Shown here piece by piece: positions 19,615 to 34,000 of a stretch of 64,000 nt of DNA; position 1 is the first letter of the stretch; the number at the start of each line of letters is the position of its first letter. The notes beneath the pieces are model-generated. The model was not told the DNA's origin, did no database searches, and saw only the letters and a list, made by a program, of their open reading frames with translations. The position numbers were made by a program, and so were the translations under genes. This DNA comes from an uncultured Acidobacteriota bacterium (GTDB taxonomy: Bacteria; Acidobacteriota; Polarisedimenticolia; J045): assembly GCA_963702425.1 (NCBI GenBank), contig CAVPCQ010000011.1:160001-224000 (forward strand), read 5' to 3'.

Positions 19615-20079
19615 TCAGCTTGACCCCGTCCGGACCAGGCGGTCGCCGACGAACATCATTCCGGGGGTGCGCGCGGCGACCTCGCGCAGGAATCCGGCCT
19701 GGTCGCGGGGCGAGATCATCGCCGCGCCGAAGCCACCCTTCCGGCTCCGGAATCGGATCAGCAGCCGGTCGAGCGACAGCGCCGGCGCGGAGAGGATGCT
19801 GCGCGTCGGTCGGATCTCCTCGATCCCGTCGAGCGGGACCTTCCAGCGAAAGAGCCCGCTCCGGATCACCAGCTCCTGCTCGGTGAGCTCGTAGTAGAGC
19901 GGGAAGCTCGCGGCCAGGATCAGCGTGAAGGTGATCACCGAGATCGTGATCAGGTAGCTTCCCGCCCTGGCGTCGGTCCAGACGATGAGCAGGCCGGCGA
20001 TCAGCGGAAGGATGGCCGAGCCCCAGATCAGGGACACGAGCCAGGCGTCCTTTTTCGACGTGAAGACCCGCGTCATCAT
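19615..20079 (-). CDS. Bacterial PH-domain membrane protein
   Basis: FTSKKDAWL, two TM helices, YEL...LVIRSG and SAPALSLDRLLI..ISP.D. Confidence 0.8.
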   Translation of the reverse strand: MMTRVFTSKKDAWLVSLIWGSAILPLIAGLLIVWTDARAGSYLITISVITFTLILAASFPLYYELTEQELVIRSGLFRWKVPLDGIEEIRPTRSILSAPALSLDRLLIRFRSRKGGFGAAMISPRDQAGFLREVAARTPGMMFVGDRLVRTGSS

Positions 20080-20103
20080 CGCCGTCGCCCCCGGGCGCGG
20101 ACC

Positions 20104-20129
20104 GTAGGGGCCGGCCTCCGTGCCGGCCC
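20104..20129 (+). repeat. GTAG-family REP copy
   Basis: GTAGGGGCCGGCCTCCGTGCCGGCCC; hairpin GGGCCGGC/GCCGGCCC. Confidence 0.85.
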
Positions 20130-20140
20130 GCATCAGCGCG

Positions 20141-21712
20141 TCACGCCAGCTGCCAGACCGTGTCCAGCACCGTCCCATCGACCCACTTCACGACCGCGAC
20201 CGGGCGGTCGGTGAACCGGGCCGTACGCGGCTTGCCGCCGCACAGCCGCACGACCTCCGCCGCGATCTCCTCGATCGGCCGGATCGGCAGCCCCTTCCCC
20301 TGCACCGCCTCGAGCAGGTCGGTGCGGCGCGGGTTGACCGCGATCCCGCGCTCGGTGACCACGACGTCGATCAGTTCCCCCGGCCCGACCAGCGTCGTGA
20401 CCTCGTCCACCAGCACCGGGATCCGGTCGCGGAACGAGGGGACCGCGAGGATCGTGCACCCCGCATGCAGGCAGTTCTGCCAGCCGCCGATCCCGTGCAG
20501 CAGCCGGCCGTCGGAGTGCGTGACGACGTTGGCGTTGAACGCCAGGTCGACCTCGGTCGCGCCGAGCACCGCAACGTCGACCATCGAGGCGAAGCAGCCC
20601 TTGCCGTGGTCGTTGTACGAAGTGAAGGGGGAGGTCGCGACGTGGCGCGGATCGCTCGCGATCGAGTGGACCGCATCGAGGTCGAAGGTCTGGCCGTCGA
20701 GGATGAACTTCGTCAGCCCCTCGCGCAGCATCTCGACCAGAACCCTGGTCGAGCCGCCGCGGACGAAACCGGCCGTCACGCCGGCCTCGCGCATCATCTG
20801 CGCCAGGACCGGCACGAAGGCCAGCGCCGTCCCGCCGGCCCCGGCCTGGAACGAGAAGCCGTCCCGCATGATCCCGGCTTCCTTGATGAACCGCGCGACG
20901 TACTCGGCGATCAGCAGGCGGTCGGGGCTCTTCGTGAGCTCGGTCGTCCCGGAGACGATCTTCGCCGGGTCGCCGATCGACTCGACCTCCACCACGAAAT
21001 CGACGTTGTTCCCCTGGACCTGCCACGGCACGCACGGGAACGGGACCAGGTTGTCGGTGACGACGATCACCTTGTCGGCGTAGATCGAGTCGGCCAGTGC
21101 GAACCCGATCGAGCCGCAGGCCGACTTGCCGAGCGCGCCGTTGGCGTTGCCGAACGCGTCGGCAGCCGGCGCCGCGATGATCGCGATGTCGATCTTCACC
21201 TCGCCGTCCTGGATCGCCTGCCAGCGCCCGCCGTGCGAGCGGAGCACTCCCAGCCCGCGCATTTCGCCCCGCGAGACGAACTCGCCGATCGGGCCGTTCA
21301 TGCTGCCTTCGATGTGGTGCACCGTCCCGCGGCGCATCATGTCGATCACCGGCTCGTGGCACGGGAACGAGGCCGACGGGAACCACATCAGGTCGCGGAC
21401 CCCCATCTCCTCCGCGATCCGGAGCGCTTCCAGCGCGACGCGGTCGCCGTTGCGCAGGTGGTGGTGGGACGAGACGACCATCCCGTCCTTCAGCCCGCAG
21501 CGCTCGAGCGCCTCGCGCAGCGACCCGACGCGCTTGTCGCCGTTGGCCGGGTAGTCGGCGCTGCGTGCGATCCGGGGTCCATACTTGCGGCCGCGAGCGC
21601 GGTGCTGGCCGACCCCCTCGAAGGGCGTCTGGTCGCGGCCGTTGACTTCCGTCGGCACGCGTCGGCCGGCGGCGTTCTGCACGAGCTTGGTGCGCGTCGT
21701 CCGCTGGGCCAT
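20141..21712 (-). CDS. citF: Citrate lyase alpha subunit-like CoA/ACP-transferase
   Basis: SSHHHLRNGD, LRSHGGR, FSFQAGAGG, LGATEVD..FNANV.THSDG and VVKWVDGTVLD. Confidence 0.92.
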   Translation of the reverse strand: MAQRTTRTKLVQNAAGRRVPTEVNGRDQTPFEGVGQHRARGRKYGPRIARSADYPANGDKRVGSLREALERCGLKDGMVVSSHHHLRNGDRVALEALRIAEEMGVRDLMWFPSASFPCHEPVIDMMRRGTVHHIEGSMNGPIGEFVSRGEMRGLGVLRSHGGRWQAIQDGEVKIDIAIIAAPAADAFGNANGALGKSACGSIGFALADSIYADKVIVVTDNLVPFPCVPWQVQGNNVDFVVEVESIGDPAKIVSGTTELTKSPDRLLIAEYVARFIKEAGIMRDGFSFQAGAGGTALAFVPVLAQMMREAGVTAGFVRGGSTRVLVEMLREGLTKFILDGQTFDLDAVHSIASDPRHVATSPFTSYNDHGKGCFASMVDVAVLGATEVDLAFNANVVTHSDGRLLHGIGGWQNCLHAGCTILAVPSFRDRIPVLVDEVTTLVGPGELIDVVVTERGIAVNPRRTDLLEAVQGKGLPIRPIEEIAAEVVRLCGGKPRTARFTDRPVAVVKWVDGTVLDTVWQLA

Positions 21713-21721
21713 CACCGCCTC

Positions 21722-22918
21722 CTACGCCTTCGTCCGGCCGACGAGCGCGAGCGCCCGCTTGACCACCGGCGGATCGATCATCTTGGAGCCCAGGCTGACG
21801 ACGCCGAGCCCTCTGGCATGGGCCTCCTCGAACGCGGCGACGATCCGGGCGGCCTTCTCGAGCTCCGCCACGCCCGGTGCAAACCCGTCGTGGATCACCG
21901 GGATCTGCCGCGGGTGGACGCAGCCCATCCCCTCGAACCCCATCGCGCGCGAGCGCAGGGCCCAGGCGCGGAGTCCATCGAGGTCTCCGACGTCGCCGTA
22001 GACCGAGTCGATCGCCTGCACCCCGGCCGCCTTCGCGGCGTTCACCAACCGTTGGCGGGCCCAGAGCGTCTCCGCCCCTTCCGGCGTCTTCACCACGCCC
22101 AGGTCGGCCGTATGGTCTTCGAGGCCGATCGTGAGCGCGGCGACCGAAGCGTGCGCGCGGGCGATCGCGAAGGCGTGCTCGATCCCGAGCGCGGACTCGA
22201 GGATGGGCATCAGCCAGACCGGCGCGCGGCGGCGTGCGCGCCGCGCAACGGTCGCGATCCGGGCCGCCACCTCGCGCACCTGGGCCGCGCTTTCGACCTT
22301 CGGAATCAGCACGAGGTCGACCCCCTCCGGCACGACCGCGTCCAGGTCGGCCAGTCCGAGCGGCAGCTGGTTGATCCGCACCATCCGCTCCGCACCGCCG
22401 AAGTCGATCGTGCGCAGGGCGTTCCGCACGAGCAGCCGCGCCGAGTCCTTCTCCGCCGGGTGCACCGAGTCCTCGAGGTCGAGGATGACCCCGTCCGCGC
22501 CGTAGAGGGCGGCGTTGACCATGAACTTGGGCTCGGCGCCGGGAACGTAGAGACGCGAGCGCCGACGCCGCTCGCGCGCCGTCGGCGCGGGATCCGGGGC
22601 GAGGCGCGGCGGGCGCGCATCTCCCCCGGCGATCCCGGCCCGGCGCGCCGCCGCCTCCAGCCGCGCCGCGATGACGAACGGCAGCGCTCCGGCGTCGTCG
22701 AGTTCGACCCGCGCGTGTCGGACGCCCAGCAACTTCAGTAGCGCGCGGAGTTGCTCCTCGATCGACGCGCCGTAGTACGGTTTGACCTTGGACCGCATGG
22801 TGAGCGCAATACCGCCGGTCCGGCGAAGCTCGACGGTTACGTGACAGTCGGAGCGGACGTCCGGGCCCTGCCGGCCCGCTGATGTCGTTGTCGGCACCTT
22901 CGCCTTTCGAGTCGCCAT
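21722..22918 (-). CDS. citE: Fused citrate-lyase ACP (CitD-like) and citryl-CoA lyase (CitE-like)
   Basis: N-terminal RSDCHV..SKVKPYYGASI..DAGALPFVIAARLEAA (CitD-like), then RRSRLYVPG, LDLEDSV, GLED.TAD, HPRQI and KMIDPPV (CitE). Confidence 0.9.
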   Translation of the reverse strand: MATRKAKVPTTTSAGRQGPDVRSDCHVTVELRRTGGIALTMRSKVKPYYGASIEEQLRALLKLLGVRHARVELDDAGALPFVIAARLEAAARRAGIAGGDARPPRLAPDPAPTARERRRRSRLYVPGAEPKFMVNAALYGADGVILDLEDSVHPAEKDSARLLVRNALRTIDFGGAERMVRINQLPLGLADLDAVVPEGVDLVLIPKVESAAQVREVAARIATVARRARRRAPVWLMPILESALGIEHAFAIARAHASVAALTIGLEDHTADLGVVKTPEGAETLWARQRLVNAAKAAGVQAIDSVYGDVGDLDGLRAWALRSRAMGFEGMGCVHPRQIPVIHDGFAPGVAELEKAARIVAAFEEAHARGLGVVSLGSKMIDPPVVKRALALVGRTKA

Positions 22919-22941
22919 GGCCCCTCCTGGTCCACTCGATC

Positions 22942-22967
22942 GGGCCGCCACAGAGGGCGGCCCCTAC
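22942..22967 (-). repeat. Variant REP copy; its GTAG supplies the dehydrogenase stop codon
   Basis: GTAGGGGCCGCCCTCTGTGGCGGCCC with compensatory stem changes; TAG at 22966-22964. Confidence 0.8.
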
Positions 22968-24148
22968 AGGTGCGCGAGGATCGCGTCCGTCATCTGGCAC
23001 GTCGTCGCCGCACCGCGCTGGAACACGCCGGGTCCGCCGGTGAGGCGCAGCATGTCGTAGGTCCGAACCTTGCCTTCGCTGACCACGGCGGCCACGGCGG
23101 CCCGGACGCGCTTCCCCTTCCCCTCCTCGCCGACGTGATCGAGCAGCATCGCCGCGGAGAGGATCATCGCGATCGGGTTGACGATCGACGGGTCGAGCGC
23201 CTCGTACTTGGGCGCCGAGCCGTGGGTCGGCTCGAAGACCGCGACCTCATCGCCGATGTTGCCCGAGCAGGCGAAACCCAGCCCGCCGACGAGCCCGGCG
23301 AAGGCGTCGGAGATGATGTCGCCGAACAGGTTGCTGGCGACGATCACGCCGTACTCCTCGGGGTTCTTGGAGAGCCACATCAGCTGGGCGTCGATGTTGG
23401 TCGACCAGAGCGCGATCCCGGGGTAGTTCTTCGCGACCTCCTTCGCCACCTCCTCGAACATTCCGGAGGTCTCGCGCAGGACATTCGGCTTCTCGCAGAC
23501 CGTGACCGACTTGTAGCCGTGCTTCTTCGCGTAGCGGAATGCGGCGTCGACGATCCGCAGGCAGGCCTTGCGGGTGATGATCCGCAGCGAGACGGCCATC
23601 TCCTCGCCCGGCACCGCAGCGAACGGCTTCCACTTGGAGTGCATCGCGAAGGCCTCGCGCACCGCGGCCGGGGGGTTGGTCCACTCGACGCCAGCGTACA
23701 TTCCCTCCGTGTTCTGACGGAAGACGGGGACATCGACCCGCGGCTCCTCGATCGACCCGTCCGCGGTCTTGCGGACGTAGTTGAGCGGGTTGCCGGGGAA
23801 CGACTGGCAGGGGCGCAGGCAGATGTCGAGGCCGAAGCGCTGCCGCATCGCGACGATCGGGCTGAAGTACTGCAGTCCCTTGCCGCGCAGCGCCGGGGCG
23901 AGTTCCGCCTCGGCCTCCTTCTTGGGTTTGCTCGTGATCGCGCCGAACAGGCCGAGCCGGTGCTCGGCGAGCAGCGCGACGGTGCGCTCGGGGAGCGGGT
24001 TGCCCTCCGCGATCCAGGAGTCCCAGCCGATGTCGGCGTGGACGTAATCGGCCTCGAACCCCACCTTGTCGAGCACCCGGATCGCCTCCGGGAGCACCAC
24101 TTTCCCGATCCCGTCGCCGGGCATCGACACGACCGTTCGTTTCGCCAT
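22964..24148 (-). CDS. Beta-decarboxylating dehydrogenase, homoisocitrate dehydrogenase-like
   Basis: PGDGIG, FGAITSKP..YFSPIVAMRQ (resembles fungal Lys12 YSSPIVALR), RQNTEGMY, NLFGDIISD and FEPTHGSAP. Confidence 0.85.
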   Translation of the reverse strand: MAKRTVVSMPGDGIGKVVLPEAIRVLDKVGFEADYVHADIGWDSWIAEGNPLPERTVALLAEHRLGLFGAITSKPKKEAEAELAPALRGKGLQYFSPIVAMRQRFGLDICLRPCQSFPGNPLNYVRKTADGSIEEPRVDVPVFRQNTEGMYAGVEWTNPPAAVREAFAMHSKWKPFAAVPGEEMAVSLRIITRKACLRIVDAAFRYAKKHGYKSVTVCEKPNVLRETSGMFEEVAKEVAKNYPGIALWSTNIDAQLMWLSKNPEEYGVIVASNLFGDIISDAFAGLVGGLGFACSGNIGDEVAVFEPTHGSAPKYEALDPSIVNPIAMILSAAMLLDHVGEEGKGKRVRAAVAAVVSEGKVRTYDMLRLTGGPGVFQRGAATTCQMTDAILAHL

Positions 24149-24162
24149 CGTCATCCTCGTTC

Positions 24163-24188
24163 GGGCCGGCACGGAGGCCGGTCCCTAC
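24163..24188 (-). repeat. GTAG-family REP copy
   Basis: Reverse complement GTAGGGACCGGCCTCCGTGCCGGCCC. Confidence 0.85.
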
Positions 24189-24215
24189 GTTTCGCGGGCC
24201 GGGCGGAGCCGGCCG

Positions 24216-26163
24216 TTACGCCAGGCCCAGCTTCCGGGCCACCATCTGCTCGATTCCTCCCGCGATCACCAGCGACTGCGGCACGCTGCCGAGCGCCGGG
24301 AACGCAAACGTCTCGCCGCGGAAACGGATCACGCCGTTTCGGTAGTCGATCTCCACCTCGTCGTCGGGCACGATCGTCCGCACGCGCTCCGCGATCTCGG
24401 GCCCGAACAGCTCCGCCAGGCGCCGGGGGAAGGCCGCGTTCTCGACGCAGGGAAAGCCGTTGTTGAACGCGTTGCGCAGGTAGGTCTGCGAGAAACTCCC
24501 GGCGACGACGACCGGGATCCCCTTGGCCTGCAGCGCGGTCACCGCCTGCTCGCGCGAACTCCCGGTGCCGAAGTTGAAGCCGCCGACGACGATGTCCCCG
24601 GGCCGCGTGCGCGCGGCGAACTCCGGGTCGTAGTTCTCCATCACCACCCCGGCCATCATCTCGCGCGTCATGTCCTCGCGATAGGTGTAGTCCTTGCCGT
24701 AGATCCCGTCGGTGTTGAGGTTGTCCTGGGGGACGTAGACCAGGCGGCCCCGGATCGCGGCGGGGAAACCGTCCAGGATCTCGACCGCCTCGGCCGGAGG
24801 CCCGTCGTCGGGAATCACGACGTAGTCGCGCGCGAGCGTGCCGCGCGGCATCTCGCCCGGCCCGCAGATGTACCCCGCCGCCGCGGAGGCCGCGACGACC
24901 GCCGGGCTGGCGAGGTAGCAGCGGGCGTCCCGCGATCCCATCCGCCCCTTGAAGTTGCGGTTGGTCGCCGAGATCCCGACCTCTCCCGGCTCGAGCAACC
25001 CCTCTCCCAGCCCGATGCACGGCCCGCACGACGGGGGCAGCGCCACGGCCCCGGCCTCGAGCAGGACTCTGCCAGTCCCCGGCGGCCTCGGCGACGCGCT
25101 GGACGGCTGCGCTGGCCGGGGCGACGTAGAGCGTCACGCCGCCGGCGACCTTCCTCCCCTTCAGCACGGCCGCGGCCGCCGCGAAGTCCTCGGCCCGGCC
25201 GTTCACGCACGACAGCAGGTAGGCCTTCTGCACGGTGACCCGCTTCGCCTCGATCTCGGCCAGCGGCGTGGTCACCTGCACCTGGTCGGGGCCGGCGACG
25301 AAGGGCCCGACCTCGGACAGGTCGAGCGTGATCTTCGCGGCGTAGACGGCGTCGGGGTCCGGCGCGGGCGGGCGCATCTCCCAGCGCCTCAGATCGTCAT
25401 CGGTGATCCGGCGGATCCCCTGCGCGGCCAGTTCCGCGGCGCGCGCGCCCAGGAAGGCGAGGGTGACGTCGTCGACCGGGAACCAGCCGACGAGGGCGCC
25501 CCACTCGGTCGTCATGTTGGAGATCGTCAACCGCGAGTCCATCGAGAGGCTGGCCACGCCCGGCCCGACGAACTCGACCGCCGCGTTGAGGACCTCTTCC
25601 CGGTTGTAGATCCCGCACAGCGCGAGGATCACGTCCTTGCCGGAGACTCCGGGCCGCAGCCGGCCGGTCAGGACGACCTGCACCGTCCGCGGCACCTGCC
25701 ACCAGAACTCACCCGTGGCCCAGATCGCCGCGGCGTCGGTGCGCACGACCGGGGTCCCGATCGCGCCCAGCGCGCCGTACATGTTGGAGTGCGAGTCGGA
25801 CGCCACGACCAGGCTGCCGGGCACGACGTAGCCGCGCTCGACCATCAGCTGGTGGCCGATGCCGGAGCCGGCCGGGTAGAAGTCGATCCCCTGCTCCTTC
25901 GCGAAGGCCTCGATCCGGCGGTACTTGCCGAGATTCTCGGGGGCCTGGTTCTGGATGTCGTGATCGAGCGTGAAGACCGGCTGCCGCGGGTCCCCGACCG
26001 TCTTCGCCCCGATCCCCTGGAACTTCTTCAGCACCGCGGCGGTGTTGTCGTGGGTCATCACGTGCCGCGGCCGGATCGACAGGAAATCCCCGGCGCGGAG
26101 CGGCCGGTCGGGCCCCTCCGCCATGTGCGCCTGCGCGATCTTCTCGACGATCGTCTGTCCCAT
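24216..26163 (-). CDS. lysF: Single-chain homoaconitase, fungal Lys4/LysF-like (one extra base near 25069)
   Basis: QTIVEKI..SIRPRHVMTHDN, DSHSNMYG..TPVVRTDAAAIWATG, SCVN, CGPCIGLG, ATNRNFKGRMG, NTDGIY and GTGSSREQA. Deleting one base joins the 24151-26163 and 24216-25046 ORFs. Confidence 0.85.
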
Positions 26164-26184
26164 CGCTTCTCCTGCCCGGGCCCC

Positions 26185-26210
26185 GTAGGGGCCGGCCTCC
26201 GTGCCGGCCC
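26185..26210 (+). repeat. GTAG-family REP copy
   Basis: GTAGGGGCCGGCCTCCGTGCCGGCCC between prpD and the homoaconitase gene. Confidence 0.85.
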
Positions 26211-26217
26211 GCCCGCG

Positions 26218-27612
26218 TTACCGGTCGGCCTTGCAGAGCGCCATCAGTTCGGCCACCGAGCCGGCGCACTCCAGGCTCCAGACCGCGTCCTTCAGCCGCT
26301 TGCGGGCCGCCGCGGTCATGACCGGCTCGGCCAGCGCGTCGAACTTCTCCTCGACCTCGGCGTCCGTCAACGGGTGCCGCGGATCGCCCTTCGGGTAGTC
26401 GAGCCGCTTTTCGAAGGTCCGCCCGTCGGTCGCGGTGATCTTCACGATCACGCGCTGCAGCCTCGGGAAGTCGGCCTCGATCTCCGGGTCGGCGACGACC
26501 TTCACCTTGTGCAGCTGCTCGCGGATCACGGGATCCATGATCTTGGCGTCCGTGAACTGCAGGGGCGTGACCTGGCGCTCGGCGACCGCCGCCGCGATCA
26601 CGTACGGGAGCGAGTGGTCGGCCGTCTCCTTGGTGCGCGGGTCGTACTTCGAGGGATCGGCCAGGATGTCGGCCGCGCGGGCCAACGAGCGGATGGCAAC
26701 CTCCTTCACCTGCTCCGGCGCGAGGTCGTTCTCCTTGACCAGCTCCAGCGTCGCCGAGATCGGCGCGTGGGTCAGCGCCTCGGTCGGGAAGGCCTTCATC
26801 CCGCAGCGCAGGATGCGCCACGAGGTGCCCAGCCCGTCGGTGAGGATCTCGAGCTTCCACTCCGGCCTCAGGCAGTGCGCGAGCCCCTCCTTGCCGTCGA
26901 TCACATGCTCGGGGCCGGAGTAGCCCTTCTCCGCCAGCAGCGCGGCCAGCACGCCGCTCTGCGTCGCCAGCGGGTCGACGGTGTTCTTCATCATGGTCAG
27001 CTTGCCGGCCGTCACCGCGCCGAGCGTGGCGTGGCGGCTCCCGGAGATCCCGATCGCGTGCTGGATCTGCTCCGGCGTCAACCCGAGCATCCGCCCGGCG
27101 ACGATCGGCGAGGCGAACGCGGTCAGCGTCGCGTGGTGCCAGCCGCGCTCGCGGATCCCGGGGAAAGCGCACTCGCAGAGCCGCATCTCGAACTCGTGCC
27201 CGAGCACGATCCCGACGATCAGCTCCCGGCCGTCGCCCCCGGCGCGCTCGGCGCAGGCCATCGCCGCCGGGATGATGTCCGACGGGTGCGACGGGTCCTG
27301 CTGCCAGTAAATGTCGTTGTAGTCCATGACCCGGACCATCAGGGCGTTGGCGAGCGAGGCCGAGACCGGGTCGATCCGCTGGCCGCTGCCGATGACCGTC
27401 GCGGAGCCAGAACCGGCGATCTCGTCGAGCACCGAGAGCGCGATCGTCACGTCGTGCTGACGGTAGCCGCCCAGCGCGCAACCGAGCGAGTCGAGCAGGT
27501 AGCGCTTGGCCTCGTGGACCGCGTCGGCGGCGATCTGCTCGTAGCGGAGGGAGGCGGCCCAGCGGGCCATCGTCGCGGTGATCGTCGCTCTGCCGGGGGT
27601 GGCATCGGCCAT
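26218..27612 (-). CDS. prpD: MmgE/PrpD family dehydratase
   Basis: DSLGCALG, RVMDYND..SHPSD, GWHH, KETADHSLPY and YPKGDPRHP. Confidence 0.9.
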   Translation of the reverse strand: MADATPGRATITATMARWAASLRYEQIAADAVHEAKRYLLDSLGCALGGYRQHDVTIALSVLDEIAGSGSATVIGSGQRIDPVSASLANALMVRVMDYNDIYWQQDPSHPSDIIPAAMACAERAGGDGRELIVGIVLGHEFEMRLCECAFPGIRERGWHHATLTAFASPIVAGRMLGLTPEQIQHAIGISGSRHATLGAVTAGKLTMMKNTVDPLATQSGVLAALLAEKGYSGPEHVIDGKEGLAHCLRPEWKLEILTDGLGTSWRILRCGMKAFPTEALTHAPISATLELVKENDLAPEQVKEVAIRSLARAADILADPSKYDPRTKETADHSLPYVIAAAVAERQVTPLQFTDAKIMDPVIREQLHKVKVVADPEIEADFPRLQRVIVKITATDGRTFEKRLDYPKGDPRHPLTDAEVEEKFDALAEPVMTAAARKRLKDAVWSLECAGSVAELMALCKADR

Positions 27613-27618
27613 CGTGGA

Positions 27619-27760
27619 TCTCCGGGCCGGCGAGGAAGCCGGCCGTTCTAGGGCCGGCACGGAGGCCGGCCGTTCTCCGGGTCGGCACGGAGGCCGGCCA
27701 TTCTCCGGGCCGGCACGGAGGCCGGCCATTCTCCGGGCCGGCACGGAGGCCGGCCCCTAC
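27619..27760 (-). repeat. Tandem array of about five 28-bp REP-derived units
   Basis: Unit TTCTCCGGGCCGGCACGGAGGCCGGCC(A/G) head to tail; only the last unit has the CTAC (GTAG) end, and the first is degenerate. Confidence 0.9.
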
Positions 27761-27761
27761 G

Positions 27762-28296
27762 TCATCGTTTGAAGGGCTCGAAGCTCATGAAGTCGGCGTG
27801 GTGGACGATGAACGCCTCGGGGGTGCGCTTGACCATGATTCCCCTCGCCGGCGTGCGCGGCGATCACGTGGCAGACGGCGTCGGGCACCCCGCACTCCAT
27901 CGCGAGGGCCACGCCGGTGAACGGGTGACGCAGCAGTTCTCCGCGCGCGCTCTGCCGGGCCTTGCCGTCGATCTTCTCGTACTCGAGCAGCTTGCCGACG
28001 TCGGCGAGGATGGCCCCCGCGATCACGGTGTCCATCTCGATCGGCAGCGACCGGCCAAGGAACGCCTGCATCGCCTCTGCGGCGCGGCGAGCGATGTGCA
28101 CGACGCAACGCTTGTGCTCCATGAAGGTGACCGGACAATCGGGAACGAGCAGCGTAAACGGAATCTCCTCGAGATCCCGCGGCGCCAGCGGACTGAGCTC
28201 GAGAGCGCGGACCCAAGTTGCGAGCACCGCCTCGCGCAGCGCGGCGCCCTCGATCCAGTCGATCTCGGGCCACAGCTTCATTACGGCGTCGCGCAT
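27762..28296 (-). CDS. HD/HDIG-fold protein (one extra base near 27839; HD motif reads AD)
   Basis: MEHKRCVV, GAILADVGKLLEY, LRHPFTG and HVIAAH. The corrected frame ends KRTPEAFIVHHADFMSFEPFKR*. Confidence 0.8.
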
Positions 28297-29532: not shown

Positions 29533-30939
<1,407 letters not shown>

Positions 30940-30960
30940 CCGGACACCATTCTGCCACCT

Positions 30961-31000
30961 CAAAAAGCGACGCGCCCCGGAGGGTCCCGGGGCGCGAGCG
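30961..31000 (-). terminator. Intrinsic terminator after the TonB receptor gene
   Basis: CGCGCCCCGG-GACCCT-CCGGGGCGCG stem followed by TCGCTTTTT on the minus strand. Confidence 0.75.
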
Positions 31001-31013
31001 AACGGAGCGACGC

Positions 31014-34000
31014 TCAGAAGTTCAGCTTGAACGCGACTTGGAACTGCCGGCCGAAACGCGAGGTGGCGATCGGCGTCTCGATGTTGCGCGTCTGGTTGGT
31101 GACCGGATCCTGCTGCTCGTTCCGGACGATCGCCTCGATGATCTCCGTGTTGTCGTTCAGCAGGTTGAACACGTCGAGCTGGAACGTGGCCGTCGCCGAA
31201 CGGATCGGGAACTCCTTCTGGAAGTTCACGTTGAGGTCCCAGAACGGCGAGTTCCGGAAGCTGTTGCGCTGGCCGGTGGGATAGACCGTGCGCGGCGTGG
31301 TGTACCAGACGATGACCGGACTGGGACCGACGCCGCCGGTCAGGTCGGTCGGGAAATCCAGCACGGTGCGTTGCTGGATCAGCGAGTAAGGGAGACCGGT
31401 CTCGTAGGAGATCGAGCTCCCGAGGCGGAACCCGCCCCAGTAGGGCACGAACACCCGGCCGTTGAACTTCACCACGTGCCGCTGATCGGTCGACAGCGGG
31501 CCTGCTTCGTCGTCGAGGGTCGTCGGGTCGTCGCCGAGGCCCAGGTTGAAATCCTCCGCCTGACCATAGGACTGTGACCAGGTGTAGGACATGCGCGCTT
31601 CCCAGTTCTGGAAGAAGCGCCGCTCGACCTCGAGGATGAAGGCCTGGTACGTCGCGTAGTTGTTGTTGTCGATGTCGTAGATGTTCGAGAAGGCCGGGCT
31701 CCACAGCTCGAGGTCCGCGATCCCGTCAAACGTAGTCACGAGCAGCCCGTCCTGGACCGCGAGCCCGCCGGTGCAGTCGGCGAATTTCCCGATGCGCCGG
31801 CAATTGCCCGCTTTGACATTCGCGCGCCTCAGCACATCCGGCGAGAGCTCGTCCCAGTAGACCGGGCGATGGTTCGCATCCACGTCCTGGAACAGGTCGA
31901 CGTACTTGCGGTTGACGTAGCGGACCTTCGCGGTCGTCTCCGGCGCGATCTCGCGCTCCACCGCCAGGGTCCACTCGTCATTCTTCTGCGAGCGGATGTC
32001 GTTGGCCATCTGGTTGATCGAGAACGCGCTGCCGAGGACGGGTCCCTGCTGTTGACCACTCTGGTCGAGGATATCGGCTGCACGGTGCGATCGGGGCCGT
32101 TCTCGCTGGTGAATGGCAACAGGAAGGTATCGCCGTAGAAGCGACCCCAGCTCCCGGAAAGCTTCGTCTTGCCGTCATTGGCGGGATCCCAGGATGCCGA
32201 GATGCGCGGAGCGAGGTTGTTGTTGACCTCCGAGAGCACCTCCGGCTGGCGGAACTGGCGCTCGTCGGCCGGGAGGCCGGACAAAAGGGCGCAAATCTGG
32301 TTATTCGGGGCGGTCAGGCAGGTCGGGTAGAGCGACGGGTTGTCCAGGTCGGCGAAGGTCAGGAGATAGGCCTTGGTCTGGACGCAGTAGCGCGCGTTGT
32401 CCCCGCCCCGGATGCAGTCCTGGACGGCGGCCTGGTAGATCTCGCGCTGTTTCTTCGGGTTGATGTTCACGAAGCCGGTCGACTCGATCTCCTCGCGGCT
32501 CCAGCGCACACCCAGCGTCACCGAGAGATTCGGCAGCGGATCGTACGTGTCCGACAGGTAGAACGCATAGTAGTCGCCCGCCGCTTTGACGTCGCTCTTG
32601 GGGGGGAGAACAATGTGTAGTTGAGCACGTACCTCGGAACATTCTCACCCTGTTCCCCCTCTCTGCCCTGGATTTCGTCGATGTCGATGACGTTGTCGAT
32701 GCTCAGGGCGCGGCCGAAGTCCGTCATCTCATAGGCAAAGCCGCCCTTGACCCGATGCGAGCCGCCGAGCCACTCCTGGACGAATTGCTCGGCGTCGAGC
32801 TTGTAGGTCCAGCGCTCGCGCGTGTCCGAGTAGCGCCTGAAGTACGGACCACTCCGGCGCTGCGTGCGCTGGTCGGTGCAGTACAGGTCTTTGTAGGGCT
32901 CGTAGCCGCAGGTATTGATCGCGTTCGGGTCGAACGGATTGATGTCGTAGCCGACGTCCGAGTAGCCGAGAAGGGCCTCGAAGAAGAAGGTCGGCGAGTA
33001 GGGAGCCGTCCAGCGCATCGTGTAGGTCGGACCTCCGCCCGAGAGGAGCGCACCGGTCTCGAGCGGCGTGATGCTGTCCACGAAGGCCGGGCTGAGGTCG
33101 AACGGGTCGGCGCGGTACTGGAGCTGCAGGCGGTTCTTGGGAGAGACCTGCCAGGTCAGCTGGTAGAGCGGGAGGCTCGCTTTCCGCTGCTGCACGTACG
33201 ATTCGCCGCCGATGACCTGGATCGGGAAGGAGGCATCGAGGTACTCATAGCTGAGCATGTACCAGAGATGGTCCTTGACCAGCGGGCCGGAGAAGTAGAC
33301 CGACGGCTGGAACAGCTGGTAGTTCAGGGGATCGCTGCCGCCCGCGCCGTCGTAGTCGAAGATGCTGTTGCGGAAGAAGAGATTGAAGGTCGCCTCGAAC
33401 TGGTTGCCGCCGGTCTTGGTGGTGATCCGGCCGAAGCCGCCGACCGCGCCGCCGAACGACGCGTCCGCGCCCGACTCGACGACCTGGATCTCCTCGATCG
33501 CGTCGGGATTGATGTTTCCCTGGGCCTGCCCCGAGAGCGGATCGACGTTGCTCACGCCGTCGACGTCCATCTTGAAGTCGCGCTCTCGCGAGCCGTGGAC
33601 GTTCGGGTTGCCGTCACCGTCCGAGTCCTGGACGCCGGGGGCCAGGGTCAGGACCTGCTGGTACTCGCGGCCCGCCACGGGGAGGTCGGCGAACGTCTCG
33701 GCGCTGATGCTCGTGCTCGATTCCGCGCCCTTGTCGAGCTCGACCGTCTTTTCCTTGCCGACGACGGTGACCTGCTCCTGGATCTCCGCGAGCAGCGTGA
33801 TGACCAGCTCGACCGACTGACCGTCACCGATCTTGATGTCCTTGGTGACGGTCGAATAACCCGGGAAACTGATCGTCACCGCGTAGTCGTCCGGCGCCAG
33901 GCTTTCGAAGGCCGAGATCCCGTCGATGTCGGTGATCGAGGCCTTGGGCTGGCTCTTGTTCGCCTTGCTCGCCAGCGCGACCTGGGCGCCGGGGATCGTT

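Follow-up and report, generated by a model that had tools for sequence, protein, structure and literature searches.

The first half of the aminoadipate pathway is carried out by Lys20/21, Aco2 plus Lys4, and Lys12 in fungi and by HCS, LysT/U and the homoisocitrate dehydrogenase HICDH in Thermus; enzymes of the Lys4 type perform only the second half of homocitrate isomerisation. In the 2-methylcitrate cycle (PrpC, PrpD, AcnB and PrpB), an Fe-S-free dehydratase of the MmgE/PrpD superfamily is followed by rehydration by an aconitase-family enzyme. Two lyase systems, the CitCDEFXG lyase of citrate fermentation and the Hydrogenobacter-type citryl-CoA synthetase and citryl-CoA lyase (Ccs/Ccl), are both known for cleavage. 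Here we describe an operon in a 64,000-nucleotide stretch (the window; contig CAVPCQ010000011.1, positions 160,001 to 224,000) from an uncultured Acidobacteriota bacterium, which resembles a mix of these four systems but, tested against each as a whole, does not qualify as a member of any. Six operon genes and an adjoining seventh, all co-oriented, run on the minus strand from 28296 down to 19615 of the window and encode an HD-fold protein, a PrpD-like protein, a Lys4-type hydratase, a dehydrogenase that we call IDH* (for its likeness to isocitrate dehydrogenase, IDH), a CitD-CitE fusion (CitDE), CitF and a PH-domain protein. The building blocks belong to known families; what is new is the gene combination, which is widespread and strongly conserved. 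No description of this gene set was found in published full text, a source whose coverage excludes subscription journals and supplements.

With the aminoadipate pathway, the operon shares a Lys4-type homoaconitase and a homoisocitrate-dehydrogenase-like enzyme and, on the fungal side, an isomerisation split over two enzymes. It differs in having a carrier-type lyase instead of homocitrate synthase, a PrpD-like protein rather than an aconitase as the partner, and a dehydrogenase of its own subfamily with NADP-type motifs, and its carriers lack LysX-type genes. The Fe-S-free MmgE/PrpD-type dehydratase with subsequent aconitase-family rehydration recalls the 2-methylcitrate cycle, but the PrpD-like protein scores far under the PrpD cut-offs, there is no PrpC-type synthase, the lyase is of the CitE and not the PrpB type, and the operon adds a dehydrogenase for which 2-methylisocitrate, being a tertiary alcohol, would be no substrate. 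The citrate fermentation lyase is represented by all three of its subunit types (alpha, beta and gamma), with CitF near the equivalog score; however, CitD is fused to CitE, the genome has no CitC, CitG or CitX, the operon is without a citrate transporter or oxaloacetate decarboxylase, and the CitF and CitE parts are each 43% identical to the canonical set of a relative (G014). The Hydrogenobacter-type pair occupies the place of CitDEF in two related operon types (B and D, see below) but is absent from the window, and it is not simply the enzyme of its carriers' tricarboxylic acid (TCA) or reductive TCA cycle because these carriers also hold a normal citrate synthase. Methanogen chain elongation (AksA, AksD/E, AksF) has HacA/HacB-type hydro-lyases and an AksF-like dehydrogenase as well, whereas the operon lacks an AksA synthase, scores at about half the cut-offs and has two hydro-lyases instead of one.

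The gene arrangement is conserved far beyond chance. Using the PrpD-like protein as the query, we fetched 80 loci from species-representative genomes, and the order HD-PrpD-Aco-IDH-CitDE-CitF was complete and colinear on one strand in 63 of them (both hydratase parts counted). An earlier reading of the window from its letters alone (the sequence-only reading) had treated these genes as one pathway and proposed looking for their synteny in other genomes, and the complete six-gene order in 63 of 80 loci is that synteny. Another 11 loci are colinear up to the contig end. The remaining 6 depart from the order: genes are rearranged in L031, the dehydrogenase is missing from L032 and both CitDE and CitF from L048, L045 gave no match for HD, and in L062 and L097 the first three genes alone are present. 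Carrier metagenome-assembled genomes (MAGs) are titled Terriglobia/Acidobacteriaceae, Thermoanaerobaculia, Gemmatimonadota, Eisenbacteria, Latescibacterota and Rhodothermales, and relatives of the window's class show the same order. Median identities to the window, taken over the loci where each protein gave a match, are 77% for the PrpD-like protein (74-95% in 80 of 80 loci), 75% for HD, 74% for CitF, 73% for the dehydrogenase, 70% and 68% for the two hydratase parts and 64% for CitDE. The operon is among the most conserved gene sets of phyla that dominate soils and sediments but are poorly cultured. In species-representative genomes, 574 of 599 matching stretches encode a relative of the PrpD-like protein, and a sample of 301 genomes of the phylum yielded an HD homologue in 80.

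The seventh gene behaves differently. The sequence-only reading had counted the PH gene in the run; it is present there on the minus strand, but it is limited to the window's genus, occurring among 15 relatives' loci only in the genus-mates L011, L015 and L020 and among the 80 loci only in L027, a record of the same contig as L020. The PH gene is probably outside the pathway. In about 14 Terriglobia loci, a conserved, DinB-like open reading frame (ORF) of about 160 residues, with a pattern 'HL..H ... H..HHH.GQM' judged by eye, lies between the PrpD-like and hydratase genes (for example L034:11478-11942, L039:11406-11978, L066:11466-11951 and L080:11341-11961). PrpD-like relatives at 50-56% identity also occur outside such operons (paralogues at L016, L017, L018, L025 and L110; genomes G013, G020, G025 and G039), and G025 and G039 each encode, on a different contig, an HD homologue that stands alone (L112, L113).

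We also fetched and compared 34 neighbourhoods of HD homologues, and operon-type genes stood beside HD in 26 of them. Four operon types can be told apart. Type A, the window's, is HD-PrpD-Aco-IDH-CitDE-CitF; type B is CcsA-CcsB-Ccl-HD-HacA1-HacB1-IDH*-HacA2-HacB2, complete in 6 loci; type C is HD-fused Aco-HacA-HacB-CitDE(-CitF), seen in 4 loci, with CitF in 2 and a dehydrogenase nearby in 2; and type D is CcsAB-Ccl-HD-PrpD-like, in 2 loci. Two unlike hydro-lyases are always paired across these types. Their swivel domains fall into two classes, one comprising HacB1 and the window's Lys4-like protein ('NTD.I..GK.YTY(T/R)') and the other HacB2 and the fused type C protein ('DTDMI(Y/F)HN.H-LAIT'), and for this reason the PrpD-like protein and the second aconitase-family enzyme appear to be alternatives for one step. 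At another step, CitDEF and the citryl-CoA synthetase plus citryl-CoA lyase stand in for each other. What stays constant through the operon types is the HD protein together with the special dehydrogenase; the dehydrogenases of types B and C (55% and 73% identity to that of the window) agree with IDH* in Ser-Pro-Ile-Val, in the insertion and in the NADP-type motifs (described below). This modularity supports two half-isomerases and a C-C lyase. It agrees with the earlier suggestions that two half-aconitases complement each other, since a second aconitase-family enzyme stands in the place of the PrpD-like protein and the Lys4-like protein matches the other one, and that the CitDEF-like complex makes or cleaves a citrate-like acid, since citryl-CoA synthetase plus lyase replaces it in related operons. 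In one type B operon, a STAND-NTPase gene (L117:11741-13447) lies between HacA1 and HacB1; it is probably a mobile or defence gene that landed in the operon.

The operon seems to be a self-contained branch, parallel to the first TCA steps, that converts a 2-oxo acid into the next-shorter 2-oxo acid and an acetyl unit. IDH*, of the NADP type, would interconvert a 2-oxo acid plus CO2 and a 3-substituted malate; the Lys4-type Fe-S hydratase would interconvert the 3-substituted malate and a cis-alkene; the PrpD-like enzyme would interconvert the cis-alkene and a tertiary alcohol, the citrate homologue; and CitF/CitD-CitE would load this tertiary-alcohol acid onto the carrier as a thioester and split it to acetyl-carrier and the shorter 2-oxo acid. 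The acetyl-carrier would be released as acetate, whereas operons of the Ccs/Ccl kind would yield acetyl-CoA. Plain citrate could be handled by a single aconitase, so the constant retention of two unlike hydro-lyases speaks against it and for a substrate that requires a separate enzyme for each half-reaction, as do the methylcitrate cycle and fungal homocitrate isomerisation. Because the hydratase falls in the homoaconitase family, the simplest scheme is a C7 series, 2-oxoadipate + CO2 + NADPH <-> homoisocitrate <-> cis-homoaconitate <-> homocitrate <-> 2-oxoglutarate + acetate. This is the chemistry that the sequence-only reading had proposed. What the data demonstrate is which genes are present, how conserved they are, which modules replace one another and to which families the proteins belong; the substrates, their stereochemistry, the direction and the part played by the HD protein we infer. 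We put the C7 scheme forward tentatively, as the likeliest of the readings considered here. It would be consistent with the score of 729 bits for an intact hydratase orthologue with the homoaconitase profile TIGR00139, with Thermus HICDH as the nearest solved relative of IDH*, with an Asn-to-Ile change in IDH* and with normal gltA, acnA and icd genes elsewhere. As to direction, we lean slightly towards cleavage, which would dispose of 2-oxoadipate from lysine breakdown. Cleavage is favoured by the known cleavage systems, the NADP-type motifs, the ATP-using synthetase of type B, the lack of a synthase, the lack of a LysX consumer for 2-oxoadipate and of IlvC and LeuC, and the presence of a lysine 6-transaminase in the genome.

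In its fullest form the proposal would be an undescribed 'reverse aminoadipate' branch, in which 2-oxoadipate is reductively carboxylated, isomerised by two hydro-lyases and split to 2-oxoglutarate and acetate or acetyl-CoA. It would have two non-homologous dehydratase solutions (PrpD-like or aconitase-like), two lyase solutions (the carrier type without CitC/G/X, or a relative of citryl-CoA synthetase/lyase) and an obligatory HD component, and would be a main lysine-carbon disposal route in Acidobacteriota, Gemmatimonadota and their neighbours; that all of this holds together we think doubtful. The C7 cleavage scheme, if right, would by itself be a new link from lysine or 2-oxoadipate to the TCA cycle and would show an enzyme for the 'missing' homocitrate dehydration beside a Lys4-type enzyme.

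The host genome encodes one citrate synthase (gltA), AcnA and two ordinary IDHs (icd) outside the operon, and the operon is therefore additional to the TCA cycle; the normal acnA that had been noted elsewhere in the window was found at its end. We rejected the operon as the only TCA entry, with citrate synthase present in 39 of 41 relatives, and this reading also fails in type B, where gltA, aconitase and Iso_dh lie elsewhere. The only HMGL-like gene of the host genome is that of HMG-CoA lyase, so that homocitrate, isopropylmalate and citramalate synthases are all missing. The absence of a homocitrate synthase and of citC, citG and citX, earlier remarked for the window, extends to the whole genome (91% complete).

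From its profile matches, the PrpD-like gene product is assigned to a new subfamily of the MmgE/PrpD superfamily. It matched both Pfam MmgE_PrpD_N and _C and missed the PrpD equivalogs (NF042438, 92 bits versus a cut-off of 950; NF006943, 88 versus 575; TIGR02330, 68 versus 458). The label 'prpD' given by the sequence-only reading therefore holds for the superfamily but not for orthology with PrpD. The nearest solved chains are iminodisuccinate (IDS) epimerase and IRG1, the cis-aconitate decarboxylase CAD (E ~1e-38), followed by PrpD at 1e-16, and a Protein Atlas search with the PrpD-like protein returned generic MmgE/PrpD clusters only. Of the eight residues that we take to form the active site of human CAD, five are identical (Asp93, His103, His159, Lys207 and Lys272), while Thr97 is replaced by Ile, His277 by Glu and Tyr318 by Ala; the five kept residues may be common to the whole superfamily. 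We propose that this protein is an Fe-S-independent (de)hydratase for the tertiary-alcohol half-reaction. It could instead be a decarboxylase or isomerase like CAD or IDS epimerase, with the operon making or removing an itaconate-like acid. That its closest solved relatives are these enzymes and not PrpD fits such an activity, as does RipC, an itaconate-degradation lyase, as the second-best NCBIfam row of the CitE part. Against it, an aconitase-family hydro-lyase takes the place of the PrpD-like protein in related operons, identity with the CAD site stops at five of eight residues, and identity to all solved members is low; we regard a non-hydro-lyase as highly improbable.

The hydratase is a fused large plus swivel domain protein of the Lys4 homoaconitase type. 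An intact orthologue (L030:11395-13326) scored 729.3 bits with TIGR00139 against a cut-off of 529.9, and the N-terminal piece from the window alone reached 421.8 bits, so that the earlier description as a fungal-type homoaconitase was supported. Three cysteines in 'SCVNGR' and 'SCGPCIG', presumably the ligands of the Fe-S cluster, are present in two frame pieces. The hydratase loop 'NTDGIYGKDYTYR' is common to HacB1 of type B and C operons, and charged residues line the swivel loop. These features bear on a shorter substrate series, 2-oxobutyrate + CO2 <-> 3-methylmalate <-> citraconate <-> (S)-citramalate <-> pyruvate + acetate, by which 2-oxobutyrate derived from threonine and methionine would be processed without propionyl-CoA. 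A complex of the CitDEF type with this subunit plan is known in citramalate lyase, syn elimination by a PrpD-like enzyme would suit an (S)-configured acid, and the operon's PrpD-like gene is the sole MmgE/PrpD-family match in the host genome, where no canonical PrpD was found. Nevertheless, the hydratase belongs to the homoaconitase and not to the isopropylmalate isomerase family, its swivel loop is charged, the absence of IlvC leaves no anabolic use, and the Ccs/Ccl pair is not known for citramalate. We therefore consider the citramalate series very unlikely.

IDH* appears to be a beta-decarboxylating dehydrogenase of a distinct subfamily. It matched Pfam Iso_dh with 257 bits and reached no NCBIfam equivalog (AksF2, 261 bits versus 540; AksF, 254 versus 500; iso_homocit_dh, 141 versus 680; TIGR00183, the prokaryotic NADP isocitrate dehydrogenase, 174 versus 567). 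The closest solved chain is Thermus HICDH (E 5e-56), and by this comparison IDH* would be homoisocitrate-dehydrogenase-like at best, in a subfamily of its own. When 76 orthologues were aligned, IDH* had Ser-Pro-Ile-Val where the host's own NAD- and NADP-IDH have Ser-x-Asn-Val, with Asn changed to Ile in at least 90% of the orthologues and a conserved basic insertion, 'SKPKK...LRGKG', just before this site. Its 'HGSAPKY' and 'RTYDM' are of the NADP type; 'HGSAPKY' and 'TYD' are common with the host NADP-IDH, while the NAD-IDH has 'HGSAPDI'. By analogy with E. coli IDH, we take the Asn to hold the gamma-carboxylate of isocitrate and the Lys-Tyr pair to mark NADP use.

CitF is predicted to be a CitF-like acyl-ACP:carboxylate transferase, the alpha subunit, scoring 446 bits with Pfam CitF (cut-off 27) and 497.3 bits with TIGR01584 (cut-off 501.45). 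The CitE part reached 261 bits of the 443.4 of TIGR01588, and the CitD domain 58.6 of 63.5 with the citD profile. In an alignment of 72 orthologues with canonical CitD, a Ser of CitD ('RSD') is conserved one residue off the canonical Ser of 'ESSD', presumably the attachment site. CitG, CitX and CitC were not found in the host genome (91% complete), and among 41 relatives CitG was over the cut-off in 0 type A carriers (one sub-threshold match, G021) and in 5 non-carriers. The operon thus presents a citrate-lyase-type carrier protein without a known route to its prosthetic group. One non-carrier, G014, has a canonical citrate-lyase operon (L109, G014:C452, 2216-10843) consisting of a fused aconitase-like gene, CitD, CitE, CitF, a CitX-CitG fusion and CitC, followed by a porin.

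The conserved part of the HD protein covers residues 1-153, and TIGR00277 (HDIG) gave 30.5 bits versus a cut-off of 27.6. Its structure model (pLDDT 88.9) matched the HD superfamily only, in a generic manner: a VIA-align search placed HD-superfamily chains on top (YhaM, Z 8.6, rmsd 4.2 over 129 residues), and Foldseek gave no match at E <= 0.001. In an alignment of 37 orthologues, the His of the HD dyad was changed to Ala ('ILADVGK') in all 36 type A rows covering the site, the 37th (L019) being frameshifted there. The dyad is intact in types B and C; Ala is found where the partner is PrpD-like and in most stand-alone copies aligned. Because CoA-type operons contain the HD protein too, making the prosthetic group of the carrier cannot be its task. 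In 8 of the 34 neighbourhoods, the HD homologue (58-69% identical to the window's) had no operon gene within ~10 kb (L112, L113, L119, L120, L121, L125, L144 and L145); of four such copies aligned, three have 'AD' and one 'ID' in place of the dyad.

Several observations weigh against a C7 cleavage pathway. The scheme assigns no step to the HD protein, and there is no known way for the carrier domain to become holo, CitG, CitX and CitC not having been found. The Asn-to-Ile change is weak evidence because isocitrate, too, is a good substrate of Thermus homoisocitrate dehydrogenase. Conservation does not extend to the flanks (the commonest flanking family occurs in 24 of 79 loci), a scan of the 12 most frequent flanking families revealed no transporter or regulator, and housekeeping genes surround the operon, types B and C included; a housekeeping setting of this kind suits a biosynthetic or central role better than catabolism. 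The lysine 6-transaminase was equally common in non-carriers and showed no correlation with the operon. Moreover, the lyase side looks citrate-specific: CitF scores 497 against 501, the type B Ccl scores over the cut-off of the citryl-CoA lyase subfamily and has the motifs that the citrate synthases aligned with it have in common, which we take to be catalytic and oxaloacetate-binding residues, and CcsA carries the ATP-citrate-lyase citrate-binding domain. We know of no citrate-synthase-family or CitE-type enzyme that acts on 2-oxoglutarate.

These lyase features fit a second citrate branch, 2-oxoglutarate + CO2 + NADPH <-> isocitrate <-> cis-aconitate <-> citrate <-> oxaloacetate + acetate, with acetyl-CoA replacing acetate where the operon has Ccs/Ccl. 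It would be a reductive half-TCA, for example from glutamate-family carbon to C4 plus C2, or in reverse an energy-saving citrate synthesis. CitF lies nearly at the citrate-lyase equivalog cut-off, type B uses the citrate-cleaving pair of the reductive TCA cycle, its Ccl has the citrate synthase motifs, the cofactor motifs are of the NADP type, and PrpD enzymes are established to dehydrate citrate. On the other hand, one ordinary aconitase would be enough for citrate, yet the two unlike hydro-lyases are always kept; the host and the type B carriers keep normal citrate synthase, aconitase and IDH; the hydratase is over the homoaconitase equivalog cut-off; and IDH* lacks the Asn of the host's own IDHs. 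On balance, we think the C6 branch unlikely.

We went on to consider the lysine metabolism of the carriers. The sequence-only reading had offered, as one of two directions, a synthase-free entry to aminoadipate lysine synthesis, and had named lysW, lysX and lysJ as genes to look for in carriers. LysX was below the cut-off in every carrier (none of those among the 41 relatives exceeded it, nor did any of 5 type B genomes), and the carriers are without IlvC and LeuC, so this suggestion was not supported; the two genomes over the LysX cut-off are non-carriers among the 41, one of them the unpublished G034. For the aminoadipate lysine synthesis set, these negatives concern LysX, as LysW and the fungal-type enzymes were not searched for. 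There was no complementary pattern between lysA and the operon, nor for HglS, found in 3 of 41 relatives. An L-lysine 6-transaminase is encoded in the host (641 bits versus a cut-off of 521; G000:C20:40602-41894, L146:8555-10144), alone among housekeeping genes, and is over the cut-off in 19 of 41 relatives. Among the class relatives, LeuC was over the cut-off in 2 of 41 and IlvC in 3 of 41; as a rule, members of the window's class seem to be auxotrophic for branched-chain amino acids, and the carriers, being without IlvC and LeuC, look like amino-acid scavengers. Leucine or isoleucine synthesis by the operon was rejected, with LeuC and IlvC missing from most of the class regardless of the operon. 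No riboswitch or other Rfam element was found near the operon in the window and 4 loci.

An anabolic role would have acetate, as acetyl-carrier, condensed with 2-oxoglutarate without a synthase to give 2-oxoadipate for lysine or another product made from 2-oxoadipate or a longer 2-oxo acid. The lack of homocitrate synthase, the housekeeping setting without transporter or regulator and the very high sequence conservation would suit this role, oxidative decarboxylation would pull the sequence forward on established thermodynamics, and the best NCBIfam rows of IDH*, at half the cut-offs, are the methanogen chain-elongation enzymes AksF2 and AksF. The LysX and lysA results, the scavenger profile of carriers without IlvC and LeuC and the lack of a riboswitch near the operon oppose it, however, as does established thermodynamics, by which condensation of free acetate is unfavourable at cellular concentrations, and the ATP-using citryl-CoA synthetase of type B suits cleavage better. 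We regard an anabolic role as quite unlikely.

Automatic annotation would call the parts 'citrate lyase', 'homoaconitase', 'isocitrate dehydrogenase' and '2-methylcitrate dehydratase', and such labels would lead to reconstructions that credit the carriers with citrate fermentation, the reductive TCA cycle, lysine synthesis or propionate metabolism, each of which fails a test here.

All seven genes of the co-oriented run listed by the sequence-only reading were found on the minus strand, and their coordinates are collected in Table 1. The host genome is a MAG of 5.1 Mb with 72% G+C, 91% complete and 5.85% contaminated.

Table 1. Genes of the co-oriented run and their positions in the window.
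Gene	Position	Strand	Evidence and remarks
HD-like	28296-27757	-	TIGR00277 HDIG
MmgE/PrpD family	27744/27615-26218	-	Pfam MmgE_PrpD_N + _C; start possibly as early as 27744
Aconitase family (Lys4-type)	26163-24216	-	two reading-frame pieces
Iso_dh (IDH*)	24172-22964	-	Pfam Iso_dh; likely ATG start near 24154
CitD (ACP)-CitE fusion	22951-21722	-	Pfam ACP + HpcH_HpaI
CitF	21715-20141	-	Pfam CitF
bPH_4, bacterial PH-domain membrane protein	20178-19615	-	Pfam bPH_4

One inserted base near 25068 breaks the hydratase gene in two: its N-terminal portion follows the 26163 frame, and its C-terminal portion, which contains CGPCIG, the frame of 25046-24216. Deleting the extra base gives a single ORF with 'DWQ VLLEAGAVALPPSCGPCIG' in one frame. 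The base is missing from the contigs of all 3 covering public runs (4 compared). No run contained over one third of the sampled words, so that the reads are those of relatives and not provably of the same population. A second frameshift lies at about residue 153 of the HD gene, whose conserved C-terminus 'IVHHADF' is in the other frame, to ~27762. Both frameshifts are probably assembly or sequencing errors and not pseudogenes, because the covering runs are without the extra base, the hydratase gene is one frame in relatives, the host's NADP-isocitrate dehydrogenase gene is also in two frames (G000:C35:31300-33300, L108) and a relative's locus (L015) has several frame breaks of like kind. The host assembly seems to hold scattered one-base errors.

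Elsewhere in the window, far from the operon, a SAM-I/IV riboswitch aptamer was detected at 461-598 on the minus strand (43.7 bits versus a cut-off of 41.1). The region 30001-34000, which includes cysS (29533-31704, minus strand) and ORFs beyond it, has a G+C content of 0.64-0.66 compared with ~0.72 elsewhere and could be an island or simply a conserved gene.

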